A stretch of 64,000 nucleotides of DNA from Podarcis pityusensis (taxonomy: Eukaryota): assembly GCA_964106645.2 (NCBI GenBank), contig OZ067040.1; one strand, 5' to 3'. The position numbers and the translations under genes are program-made. The notes beneath the pieces are model-generated. The model did not search any database, had not been told where the DNA came from, and worked only from the letters and a program-made list of their open reading frames with translations. Below, piece after piece: positions 57,885 to 63,174 of the stretch. Numbering within the stretch: the stretch's first letter is position 1; every line of letters begins with the position of its first letter.

Positions 57885-59402
57885 ATGGGGGACTGGAACT
57901 TGCTGGGCAGCATTCTAGAAGAAGTACACATCCATTCTACCATAGTGGGCAAAATCTGGCTCACCATCCTTTTCATATTTCGAATGCTAGTTCTTGGTGT
58001 TGCAGCTGAAGATGTCTGGGATGATGAGCAAGCAGAGTTCATTTGCAACACAGAGCAGCCTGGCTGCAGCAATATCTGCTATGACAAAGCTTTTCCCATC
58101 TCCCTGATCCGTTACTGGGTGCTACAGGTAATCTTTGTTTCATCTCCTTCCCTCGTTTATATGGGTCATGCCCTTTACAGACTACGGGCCCTTGAGAAAG
58201 AGAGGCAGCGGAAGAAAGCTCACCTCAAAGCACAGCTGGAAGAGATCGAGCTTATATTGGAAGAACACAGGAGAATAGAGAGGGAACTGAGGAAGTTGGA
58301 AGAACAAAAGAAAGTAAACAAGGCACCCTTGCAAGGGGCCTTGCTGTGGACCTACATCCTGCATATCCTGACGCGGTCAGTCTTAGAAGTGGGTTTTATG
58401 GTGGGTCAGTATCTTTTATATGGGTTTCAAATGTATCCACTTTATAAATGCACTCGCCCACCATGTCCTAACACTGTGGATTGTTTTGTATCTAGACCAA
58501 CAGAGAAAACTATCTTCATGGTTTTCATGCACAGTATTGCAGCAGTTTCTCTCTTTCTGAATGTTTTAGAGATTGTCCACTTGGGGGTAAAGAAGATTAA
58601 AAAGACCCTTTGTGGGACACTCAAGGAGGAGCTTGTAGCCACTGATAATGACATTAACTTTTCCAAAAAAAATTCAGTGATACAGCAGATTTGCATCATG
58701 TCTAACTTGTCTCCCCAAGGCAGTTTTAAATTTATGCCAGACCAGCAAGTTGGGCTGCCAGCTTACTTGGCTCCTGAGGAAGGATTCACACCTGCTGAAC
58801 AAAACCAGAACCCAATAAACGCAGAACAACAATGGTGCAGCAACCAGAGAAGCAGGCCAAATCAGCACCAGGGTCAACTCCACCACCTCTGCAGACATCT
58901 AGAACATCCTAATGAGTGTGATCAGCACCACCGACAGCTCCCCAGGCACCTCCAAAATCTCATGGGTCAGCGGCATGACTATCAACAACAGAATGAGTCT
59001 TCCAGCAGTGAGGATGTCCAGAAGCCATCACAGCAGGGCACCAACAGCTATCGAAAGAATGAACAGCATCCTCTAGAACATTCCAAGAATCCTCAACATG
59101 GTCCTAAACCTTGCATTATCTCCAGTCATATGGACAGCCCTCAAGGCATTCTTCGAAAGCATAGCCGGGCACTCAGCTGCAAGGACTTAGGAACTGATCA
59201 CTGTGACTCTCCAGACAGCGGGCGTCATCAGAACCGCAAGTCTAGCTTTTTGTCCAGGGTGTTGTCAGAAAGCCAGCTGGACACAGACTCAGACACCTCA
59301 GACTCACGGAATGGTTCTGGCTCAGATGCCAAACACAGAGATGATAGCAGTCTTCCGAACACACCACCACTTCCTTCCGCAATGGGACGCAGAATGTCAA
59401 TG
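57885..59402 (+). CDS. GJA10: Gap junction alpha-10 (Cx57/Cx62-like connexin), main coding exon; unspliced read-through ends at 59447
   Basis: [37 protein letters not shown] start; connexin cysteine signatures ([34 protein letters not shown]); four TM segments; position next to CASP8AP2. Confidence 0.95.
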
Positions 59403-62400
59403 GCAAGTAGACCCAAGCGACCTTCCTTCTATACCCTGCTAGTGTGAGTTATCGCTCCTTAGCATAGCGCTAGCTTAGGTCTTGGGCTTTACTGGTTCGT
59501 TCAGAATTGTGATCAAATAGAGCGGAAAATAATTTTGAGCTCTTTCATACCAAGTTAAGTCTTTGAGAAATATAACTGTTGCAGCAGAAAGGCATTTTAA
59601 AAACAAAACAAAATGAAAGGCATCAGACACTATGAATCTTATGGGGGGGGGGGAATTGGGAATGGGGGAGGTGCATACAATCAAATAGTGTTGCCACTGC
59701 TATCAATGTTAATATTAATGTAAAGACTTCCACACATGAACAAACAGGGTAAACAGTATTTCCTTGAATCCTCCTTGAAGCATACTTTACCCTATTTTTC
59801 AGTTTGGGAACTGAGGTTAAGGGCACCATGAAGGGTACATTATCTCCACAGCTGAGTAGGATTTTAAACTCTATTTTTCAGCAGTTATGAGGATGTGCCA
59901 TCAAATCACAGATCAGCTATAAACTCACAAGGTGGTCTAAGATAAGCCAAAGACCTCTTAGACTCAGCTCCAACCTTTGATATGGGTATCAGAACACTGG
60001 TCTAACAAAGCATTCTGAGGCTTGAAACCTCTTAGCCCCTCTGCTATATACATGGCTTCCATTGTGTCCTGCTCACAGTGACCCGTCTTGTGTGTGCACA
60101 CCCTCTAGGGGACAGGAGGGTCCATTATCCCAGCAGGTGAATGTGATCAAGGGTATGTATGTATCTCAGAATTCCTCCCCAAACCATGATGCCACAATGT
60201 TATGTAGACACCATGCAGATCAATCAGCTGAGTGACCTTTACAGTCATATCAAGTGAATGTGACCTATGCAGTTAGAAATTGTACAGTAATAAAATATGA
60301 GTGTGGGTGCATTTCCAAGCAGAGATTTTCTGCTCCTTTATGAGCTAAACAAGAATTAACTGAGACTGGTCTCTTATCATGCGGTGATGCAGGCTTGCCT
60401 TCTTCTAACCTGTTCAATTGTCAGGATTCTGCCTCCATACTAATTTTGGCTGGTAATTGCTTCCAACTGGTAGTTTGAGCTAAGCATTACCACGGTCCTG
60501 CAACCATTCCAATTCAGAGAAAGGCTCAGTGTACGATAACACTTGTTTTCCTAAGAAGCATAGGCTCATCTGCCGCATAGTTAGGCGATGCTACCTGAGA
60601 GGTTCTTATGTGGCTGCCATGTGGTACTTTGTGAGTTTCACTTTAAATGCCTGGACAGAACCCAGAAAGAGGACAAGAGGTCATGGCTCACCACACATTC
60701 ATTAGACTGCCTGCATGTTCCATGACCATAGGCACTGCTCCCTCTACATCATAGACAGGAAACTTATGCCCTACCCATATTCAACTCCCATCAGCCCCAG
60801 CCAGCATGGCCAGGATCTAGAGCAGGTGTGGGGGAACCTATGACCCTCCAAATTCCCAGCCTCAGCATGAATGTTCTATGGCAATAATGCCAAAGGGCCA
60901 ATGGGAATCGTAGTTCATCAACATATCTATGAATATCTAGAAAAATCTGGAGGGCTAATGGTTCCTCACACCTGATCTAGTAGGCTACAGGTGCTCCACC
61001 CCTGCTCTAGGCTCCCTTTCTACCTCTGCACTGACAATGGGGTGGGTCAGAGCTTTAGCTGCCCATCTCATTCCTACCCTCAAAACTGTTTACTATAAAG
61101 ATGCTTTATGTGGGGCTGCCTTGTTTCTGGTCTGGAAGCTGTAACTTCCAGCGGCCAGACTGCTCATGGGAGAAAGCTACATGTTACTCTTGCTGAGAGA
61201 GCCGCACAGGTTGCCAGCTTGCTGCTGGACCAGGTTCAAGGTTATTGTGTTAGTTCACAAAGCCCTACAGAACTAGGGTCTAAAGTACCTTAAAAACCAC
61301 TTGGTTCCTTAAATATTCCACTGCCAAGGGGGAATTTGGGTAGCCCTTCATGCCCGTCAGGTTTGGTCAGCCTTTCCCAGGCACCAAGCTTTCAGTGTTG
61401 CAGCCCCTACCCTGAGAAACTCCTTGCCAATGGAAGTCCCTCAGGACATCTTTGCTTCCTTTTAGATGTTGAAACCTGTACTGTTCAGACGGGCCTTTGG
61501 AACTTGGATTTTGTTGTTTTTAACTAACCAGTTTTATTGATATGCTATTATAGTAGCTTATGTTTGATATGCTATTATAGTAGCTTATGTTTCCACACTG
61601 CACGCCACCTTGTTGTTTTTCTATCAAAGTGTGGTTTATAAATATATATATATTTAAATGGTTTAATGAAACAAACCAGGTTCAAACCTGGCTCACGCCA
61701 CCCAGCCAGCATGACTGATGGTCAGGGTCAGATGATGGGTAGTTGTAGTCCAACAACACCTGGAAGGCATCTGTAGTTTAAATTAATCAGAGCTCCAAGT
61801 TCAGATGTAAGGGGGAACTCACACTAGCAGATGCTTCCACTGTGACAGGACATCTTAAACAAGTAAGTTGGCTCACTTTCAGAGATTGGATATTGGGCCT
61901 TGTGGGCTGCTACATTCTTATATTTCTGAGAAAATATTATTTGTTTGCACTACTTACTATGCTGTTCAGCTGTTGACTGAGCTCTGCTGTTTAGGCAACA
62001 AGTGTTTATGTGGTTGAACAGGACCCAAGAAGTCCTGGGCAATTGATTTTCCTCTCCCAATTGAATTGTTAAAAGCCATGACATGTACAGCTCCATTTGC
62101 TGGATTGGTTGAAGCAGCAGCATTGACCAGCACAGCAACTGAAATGTGGCTTTGTTGCTTAGAGAATGGGGCAGACAGAGCAAAGCTAGTCCTGTCCTGC
62201 TACTCAGAAACACCCTGAGTGACAAGAGATTGAGGGCAGACAAAGGGAAGTACTTTGACACAAATTCAGAAATGGCCACTAGCTTAGATCACTTTTTAAA
62301 GGGATCCTATAAATTCATGGAGGACAGATCTGTTATATCAGAAATGTGAAACCATTTGCATCCCCTGCCCCAAGGCACTGTTGAACCACAACCCCCATGA

Positions 62401-62462
62401 TCCTTAACCATTTTGCGATGGTAGCTGCAGCTGATGCGCCACCACTTCCACATCTTCTGGAG

Positions 62463-62713
62463 CAGGGGTCAGCAAACTTTTCCAGCAGGGGACTGGTCCA
62501 CTGTCCCTCAGGACCTTGTGGGGGGCCGGACTAGATTTTGGGGGGGGGGAATGAACAAATTCCTATGCCCCACAAATAACCCAGAGATACATTTTAAATA
62601 AAAGCACACATTCTACTCAAGTAAAAATACGCTGATTCCTGAACCTCCGCGGGCCGGATTTAGAAGGCGATTGGGCTGTATCTGGCCCCCAGGCCTTAGT
62701 TTGCCTACCCATG
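62463..62713. mobile_element. hAT-type MITE nested in an older short repeat
   Basis: Ends CAGGGGTCAGCAAAC...GTTTGCCTACCCATG; flanks TTCTGGAG/ATCTGGAG (7/8). Confidence 0.7.
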
Positions 62714-63135
62714 ATCTGGAGGGCTACAGCTTCTCCACCACTCTCATATTCTGAGGCAATAGATGACTGGAAAGTATTTGTTGGGGGCCAAACAGCAGGA
62801 CAGAAGTACTGCTTGTGACTGGACTAGGCTGACCTTGGTTTAATCCAGCAGGGTGGTTGTTGTGCTTTTAAGATGAAGCACTGAGCTGGTGTGGCTGACC
62901 TGCATCCCTCAATATATTGTTGGACTCTAGCTCCCATCAGTCTCAGCATAACCAATGGTTTGAGATGATGGGAACATCCAGAGGGAAACAGATTTGTCAC
63001 TCCTTCACTAAACTGTAAGCAAAACAGGTAAGTTAAAACTAAAATAATCTATAAATCTATTGAGAATGAACATTTCACTGAACCTTCTTTCTTCTTCTAC
63101 AAGCCAAGTCAGTTTCTTTCTCTTTTCTCTTTCAG

Positions 63136-63174
63136 AATGTGCTACTAGAACTATCATCTATCATGAAAAAATAA
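63136..63174 (+). CDS. GJA10: GJA10 terminal coding exon (NVLLELSSIMKK*)
   Basis: Long pyrimidine tract and TTTCAG acceptor, then AAT GTG CTA CTA GAA CTA TCA TCT ATC ATG AAA AAA TAA, matching the LLELSSIMKK C-terminus I recall for spliced Cx57. AATAAA at 63649 and 63831. Confidence 0.85.
   Translation, partial: NVLLELSSIMKK

Follow-up and report, generated by a model that had tools for sequence, protein, structure and literature searches.

Why does the main coding exon of the connexin gene GJA10 in the lizard Podarcis pityusensis end at a GC donor instead of a GT donor, and are the codons beyond this donor still used as a second C-terminus? The window analysed here, the whole 64,000-nucleotide stretch of contig OZ067040.1 (assembly GCA_964106645.2), contains an open reading frame (ORF) at 57879-59447 (+) that is evidently a connexin (PF00029 match of 324 bits, residues 3-234). 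Its nearest named records are Podarcis GJA10 (99%), and a quick tree places its protein as sister to lacertid GJA10 (support 99) within tetrapod GJA10 (98). The GJA9 clade, which includes another locus of the same genome (L014), stands apart (97), and teleost gja10a rows, named as given by the sources, are long-branched and unplaced. The comparisons below leave evenly poised the overall reading that an ancient GC donor lies in an old tail and that this old tail serves as a second, predicted PDZ-binding isoform.

The main coding exon spans 57869..59402 (+) and is preceded by an exon-2 acceptor (TTTCAG/G at 57868/57869, the slash marking the splice boundary here and below). Its coding sequence starts at the ATG at 57885, which has a strong context (A at -3, G at +4), or at a weaker ATG at 57879. 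The exon ends in ATGTCAATG at 59402 and the intron opens with GCAAGT at 59403; this GC-type 5' splice site (ATG/GCAAGT, 59400..59408, +) overlaps the Met-Ala-Ser codons of the read-through tail. When it is scored by position frequencies with +1/+2 left out, it ranks second among all GT and GC sites in 57890-63130. The GC-AG intron is 3733 nucleotides long (59403..63135, +) and closes with a polypyrimidine tract and CAG acceptor (63113..63135, +), the AG being at 63134-63135. A score of 20 pyrimidines in 20 positions puts the acceptor first among the 154 YAG sites from 59430 to 63200, and at least 19 pyrimidines are found at just 3 of the 2185 YAG sites of the window; it is thus not a chance match. 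The coding part of the terminal exon (63136..63174, +) opens with AAT and encodes NVLLELSSIMKK before a stop codon. An earlier sequence-only reading had placed the donor at 59402/59403 and the acceptor and in-phase exon at 63136, and its coordinates were right, as were the two products that it proposed: from the ATG at 57885, splicing gives 518 residues ending in RRMSMNVLLELSSIMKK and read-through gives 520 (520 and 522 residues, respectively, from the ATG at 57879). The spliced form ends in ..IMKK and has no hydrophobic end. Candidate AATAAA signals in the 3' untranslated region of the terminal exon are found at 63649..63654 (+, proximal) and 63831..63836 (+, distal).

Two further sites near the donor were considered and rejected. 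A GT donor four nucleotides downstream (CAA/GTAGAC, 59407) is a poor match, and the bird and sturgeon models using it look aligner-shifted; a YAG at 59442, as acceptor for the GC donor, would leave a 40-nucleotide intron, too short on general knowledge. The intron also carries high-copy interspersed repeats (62462-62720, 60780-60815, and 61741 onward), and the element at 62462-62720, which has an AATAAA at 62597, shows very high depth in all four sequencing runs placed on the locus.

The terminal-exon peptide is identical or near-identical in protein models from sharks to placentals. It differs at one residue from NMLLELSSIMKK, which mouse Cx57 and human Cx62 take from a downstream exon according to reverse transcription PCR (RT-PCR) reported in the available part of PMC2984586; the lizard exon is orthologous to theirs, and the separate mouse exon had been correctly cited in the sequence-only reading. 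The mouse and human genes resemble the lizard gene further in the donor position after S-M and in a last exon of 12 residues. Contigs from four of the 24 listed runs (X1, X2, X5 and X6) were placed on 57000-64000 at low depth. None of the listed runs is on record as RNA and their kinds are guessed; runs X1 and X2 come from a single study, made on a related organism with about 99% identity. One run X1 contig on 58665-59401 (1449 nucleotides, depth 5.49) leaves the stretch at 59401, another leaves it before 57867 (58 letters) at the predicted exon-2 acceptor, and a run X2 contig ends exactly at 59402. The ends at 59401/59402 fit use of the GC donor; scattered run X1 coverage is found within the intron. 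Taken together, splicing of 59402 to 63136 very likely yields the 518-residue main form, orthologous to the retinal form of mouse and human.

How old is the GC donor? Donor states were read from predicted protein models and not from ortholog DNA: among models that read through the junction, Ala after S-M was read as GC at +1/+2 and Val as GT. The tally covers named records, with clades taken from species names; unnamed Logan/JGI records, GJA9 and three non-connexin cluster members were left out. The remaining tally records are spliced, shifted or without the motif, and cartilaginous fish gave no usable read-through. Read-through models start with A-S in lizards (15/15), snakes (3/3), tuatara (1/1), crocodilians (4/4), birds (42/42, 18 of them apparently partial models with tails of just 3-5 residues), frogs (28/28), axolotl, wombat and coelacanth (1/1 each), and, among other fishes, in bichir (2/2), sturgeon (2/2), gar (1/1) and teleost gja10a (1/1). 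They start with V in placentals (17/17), turtles (10/10) and teleost gja10b (2/2), and in no other groups. One placental model (Elephantulus, P0406) opens with AGK and is ambiguous as to its donor. The sequence-only reading had given the unspliced human form as SMVSR, implying GT; GT is borne out, and the letters are not, since primate models read SM/VRQ or SM/VR (P0374, P0375, P0377, P0394).

With Ala at +1 in 11 of the 14 terminal groups, parsimony on the species tree requires three changes from a GC root and five from a GT root. The available part of PMC2490688 gives 298 GT-to-GC and 40 GC-to-GT events in mammals, along with 122,621 invariant GT sites and 253 invariant GC sites. Per site, these counts amount to about 0.24% for GT to GC and about 13.7% for GC to GT, and the far commoner GC-to-GT change favours the GC root. 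The intron-less paralog GJA9 likewise ends in S[LM]/AS.. (P0212, P0358). These results suggest that GC is very probably ancestral in bony vertebrates and turned to GT three times, in placentals, turtles and teleost gja10b. It is likely that the donor arose within the Ala codon of an old alpha-connexin tail; a donor born in the Ala-Ser codons of that tail would explain why it is GC. The lizard intron resembles the U2-type GC-AG class, which is enriched in alternative splicing (PMC2490688, in part), in its GC at +1/+2 and its near-consensus flanks. It differs from that class in that it apparently was GC from birth and went from GC to GT on three occasions, contrary to the overall mammalian count.

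The read-through tail itself (14 codons, 59403..59447, +) appears by comparison and scoring to be homologous to the ancestral alpha-connexin C-terminus. Bichir GJA10, with the tail ASRAKRRAPSDLTI, has a canonical RRAPSDLTI end and 14 residues as in lizards, and anchovy gja10a (RRMSM/ASKANRLMESDLLI) has a DLLI end at the same 14-residue length. GJA9 ends in RRTSL-ASNASSRRAPTDLQI in a turtle and in RRMSL-ASNSSSRRAPGYLQI in a whitefish, and the pattern RR.S[ML]/AS..RRAP.DL.I is common to bichir GJA10 and GJA9 (AS..RRAPTDLQI in the latter). A D-L-x-[IV] end is also found on six other connexin ORFs of the genome (L006, L007, L010, L014, L015 and L017). Tails were scored with the two donor-fixed residues left out and with 20000 random read-throughs of window DNA as the null. 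The score of the window tail against the bichir tail was reached by 1 of the 20000 (6 in the reverse direction), that against Ascaphus by 2, and those against bullfrog, axolotl and wombat by 6 each. Compared directly with the two GJA9 tails the window tail gave no match (966 and 1951 of 20000), and with rat, bat, gull and guineafowl tails it stayed at background level. The bichir tail against both GJA9 tails was never equalled (0/20000), and the link from the window to GJA9 runs via bichir. We hold with good confidence that the read-through tail descends from a single-exon C-terminus shared with GJA9.

This descent also connects the tail to Cx50, where gap-junction assembly depends on a C-terminal ZO-1-binding motif, RSDDLTI (PMC3226470, in part), that is homologous to the GJA10 read-through tail. 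The GJA10 tail is like Cx50 RSDDLTI and GJA9 RRAPTDLQI in being homologous by position and score and in ending L-x-V. Tetrapod GJA10 tails differ from both in reading Y-x-L-L-V without an acidic residue and in lying inside an intron, and their PDZ binding is only predicted. The YTLL of the lizard tail meets the Y-X-X-hydrophobic pattern of the YXXPhi endocytic signal (as defined in the available part of PMC10454166), its Tyr being invariant in conserved tails. A protein kinase A (PKA) site, KRPS, had also been proposed for the read-through form; as a unique switch it was rejected, RRMS standing before the junction in both forms and Sceloporus and boa having no KRxS there.

Is the old tail still translated? 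The sequence-only reading had singled out the hydrophobic PDZ-type end of the read-through form, and this attention was justified, the end being conserved across lizards, most frogs, axolotl and wombat. All 15 lizard and 22 of the 28 frog read-through models have a Y-x-[LM]-L-V end directly before the stop, as do axolotl, wombat and one of three snakes (boa); the frog misses are five Xenopus records and one Pyxicephalus model. This end is found in none of the placental (0/17), bird (0/42), turtle (0/10) and crocodilian (0/4) models, and the placental tails, of 2-56 residues, are unalike. The 22 distinct tails with this end are either 14 or 17 residues long, an in-frame difference; their positions 0, -1 and -4 are invariant (V at 0 and L/M at -2 in 22/22) and the middle positions vary, but since these tails were picked by their ending it is the tallies by clade that are informative. 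The lineages that keep this end split about 350 million years ago. RefSeq holds both a read-through model (X1) and a spliced model (X2) for Hemicordylus, Ascaphus and Ambystoma, 6 of the 26 named lizard records end in NVLLELSSI[ML]KK, and Lacerta agilis and Sphaerodactylus have NVLL and LLVMCY forms in RefSeq; the view that single-exon annotation would miss this exon is thus overstated. A candidate intronic poly(A) signal, AATAAA at 60289..60294 (+), with TGTA upstream and a GT-rich stretch downstream, could end a read-through mRNA.

These patterns of conservation make us lean slightly towards translation of the tail in lizards, as a second isoform under selection. On this view the weak donor would at times be passed over in lizards, most frogs, axolotl and wombat, through intron retention or poly(A) addition at 60289, and protein-level selection would maintain the 520-residue form. 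More tentatively, the lizard L-L-V end may bind ZO-1-type PDZ domains, or YTLL may act as a YXXPhi endocytosis signal, or both; donor choice would then set plaque anchoring or turnover. Extended to the family, the proposal is of a two-tail GJA10 switch for most of bony-vertebrate history, in which a later last exon was attached by way of a GC donor that originated within the Ala codon of the first, PDZ-type tail, and we judge this to fall somewhat short of an even chance. Lizards, most frogs, salamanders, marsupials and bichirs would still translate the old tail, which would have been lost where the donor hardened to GT, as in placentals and turtles. Horizontal cells could then switch the scaffold binding and the turnover of their gap junctions by the choice of donor, a means of control absent from mouse and human. 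Expression of GJA10 in lizard horizontal cells is assumed here from mouse and fish. The two tails may further have been split between the teleost duplicates, with the old tail on gja10a and the new exon on gja10b. Both gja10a records (P0215 and P0356, 2/2) end in a canonical DL[LV][IV]; among 13 gja10b/gja10 records (P0050, P0054-P0057, P0059, P0061-P0065, P0139, P0206), 11 use the terminal exon and two read through a GT donor. Such a partition is possible.

Several observations weigh against a translated, selected second tail. No intact tail is left in birds and crocodilians, which have kept GC, or in pythons, Xenopus, tuatara, turtles and placentals; the tail is thus dispensable, and its losses, about seven, are not obviously fewer than under slow decay. 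The ortholog evidence consists of predicted protein models, among which read-through models arise by default, and marsupials are represented by one record and monotremes by none. The variable tail residue (R/S/T/I) can be coded by one-base changes, which also fits a nucleotide element. The scoring test was devised after the data had been seen, and it indicates common descent, not selection. As for PDZ binding, the canonical D-L-x-[IV] is absent from the lizard tail, which ends T-L-L-V without an acidic residue. In the available part of PMC2984586 the read-through form of mouse and human was not confirmed by RT-PCR after DNase treatment. A contig joining 59402^63136 was not among the matches listed for the four runs, and no contig was found on 59403-59573 in any of these low-depth runs (4/4), where contigs can indicate presence and not absence. 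The depth in the bin 59340-59573 is fully accounted for by contigs stopping at the donor; hence no read-through contig is present, which proves nothing at such depth.

The best-surviving alternative, unlikely but serious, is that only the spliced 518-residue form matters and that the 45 bases past the GC donor are a vestige, kept as an RNA element aiding the weak donor or slowly decaying, with the L-L-V end a by-product. The unconfirmed mouse and human read-through (PMC2984586, in part) and the four runs without a read-through contig agree with it, as does the variable tail residue that needs a single base change. The tail stretch, moreover, contains a pyrimidine-rich YAG (16/20, the second best in the intron) followed by GTGAGT, and since the conserved bases overlap this YAG and the second GT donor, a nucleotide element or an LLVMCY form could explain part of the conservation. 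Tails of turtles, crocodilians and tuatara keep part of the register and lose the end, and those of Xenopus hold A-S-G-S/A-N-G-S/P-S-G-S, perhaps from the same bases in another frame. However, GC splicing can do without such an element: birds have retained GC and have spliced models, and nothing of the tail is left in them. In addition, the RRAPSDLTI end of bichir and the DLLI end of anchovy gja10a are kept at the 14-residue length of lizards, and the indels among end-keeping lineages are multiples of three.

The second donor, which was absent from the sequence-only reading, raises an alternative of its own. This AGT/GTGAGT site (59441..59449, +; boundary 59443/59444, phase 2) could be spliced to 63136, which would yield a form of 523 residues with a third tail, ...YTLLVMCY, and a choice between 5' splice sites, with GT donor 59444 in use, would keep the tail under selection. 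GTGAGT matches the full +1..+6 consensus, and LLVMCY models exist for Lacerta agilis (X1), Sphaerodactylus (X1) and Euleptes, that is, for 3 of the 26 lizard records (RefSeq/UniRef P0003, P0069, P0074). Yet no such model is found among 44 frog, 4 salamander and 1 marsupial records, the exonic match (AGT/) is poor, and the stop conserved directly after Val is left unexplained. Aligners also prefer GT-AG, as is seen in clearly shifted GT models of birds and sturgeon (AK[HY]A.. tails). We regard this choice of donor as improbable.

Still less probable is that the GC donor also joins a further exon, outside 57000-64000, to give another tail. In favour of such an exon, the run X1 contig goes 704 letters past 59401 although run X1 depth is zero on 63084-63785, the run X2 contig stops exactly at the donor like a graph branch, and several turtle and frog models have odd alternative last exons. 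This is a single contig from a related organism, however, and a stretch of 704 letters would also run from 63135 to 63838, close by the distal AATAAA; the letters may come from another exon or a chimera, or from the known exon if it went uncounted. Finally, a recent GT-to-GC mutation in the lizard lineage that weakened the donor and made a new retained form, as the sequence-only reading had proposed, has next to no chance: it can point to the raw excess of GT-to-GC events in mammals (PMC2490688, in part), to GT in placentals and to the Ala of Elephantulus P0406, and it is refuted, unless read-through models misreport the genomic codon, by Ala in the 11 terminal groups, including bichir, sturgeon, gar, coelacanth, amphibians, wombat, birds and crocodilians, and by the S[LM]AS shared with GJA9.

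Some other features of the locus and genome were noted. An upstream ORF of three codons (ATG AAC CCA TGA, window 57871-57882, +) lies at the start of the coding exon. The ATG at 57879, the first in frame and six bases 5' of the one at 57885, shares bases with the stop of this upstream ORF. The expected gene order is CASP8AP2-GJA10-BACH2. Two long ORFs stand upstream of GJA10 (window 43889-45007 and 46213-49326, +), which may be CASP8AP2-like, and a Pfam search of the ORF at 46213-49326 gave no match; a minus-strand BTB gene downstream (L004 1-1626, -) may be BACH2-like. Two Podarcis GJA10 records, P0053 and P0066, are short (356 and 247 residues), apparently from annotation errors. Elsewhere in the genome, a gamma-type connexin ORF (L009 2645, +; G000:C1 near 85468258) ends in ..RPTGK and a stop over a donor-like CTG/GTAAGT and is without the ..VWI end of its two relatives in the same genome. 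It may have a spliced last exon, though the 1.1 kb of the locus that remains yielded none.

How does this system compare with what is known? The terminal exon and the GC-AG intron class are already known, and the idea of a new GT-to-GC mutation is wrong. The lizard gene differs from mouse and human in its GC donor, its 3.7-kb intron and its conserved 14-residue read-through tail, whereas placental donors are GT (all 17 read-through models having V) and their read-through is unconserved and unconfirmed by RT-PCR. A 2018 study by Greb et al., going by its title, reportedly deals with zebrafish Cx52.6 and an alternative splice variant in horizontal cells, which would make it a gja10 gene with an alternative splice variant, like the lizard gene. 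The two teleost gja10b read-through models differ in opening with V (GT) and in having unalike tails (15 and 42 residues). Our literature searches turned up no account of the GJA10 GC donor, of its ancestry or of the conserved tail, topics that subscription papers on Cx57, Cx52.6 or connexin evolution, or their supplements, may cover.

Bird, turtle and sturgeon models (P0118, P0015, P0044) ending in AKHAPRTIIYHEK.. or HAPRTIIYHEK.. contain the terminal exon in another frame, and look like the outcome of annotation splice sites shifted by a few bases. Many GJA10 C-termini in databases are read-through or shifted-splice artefacts, for example the unconserved placental and bird tails, and motif surveys built on them can therefore mislead. 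If the read-through form is real, GJA10 would be a clear case of a single-exon gene gaining a new end with the old end kept as an option, and horizontal-cell coupling in lizards and frogs would have a splice-level handle that is absent in mouse.

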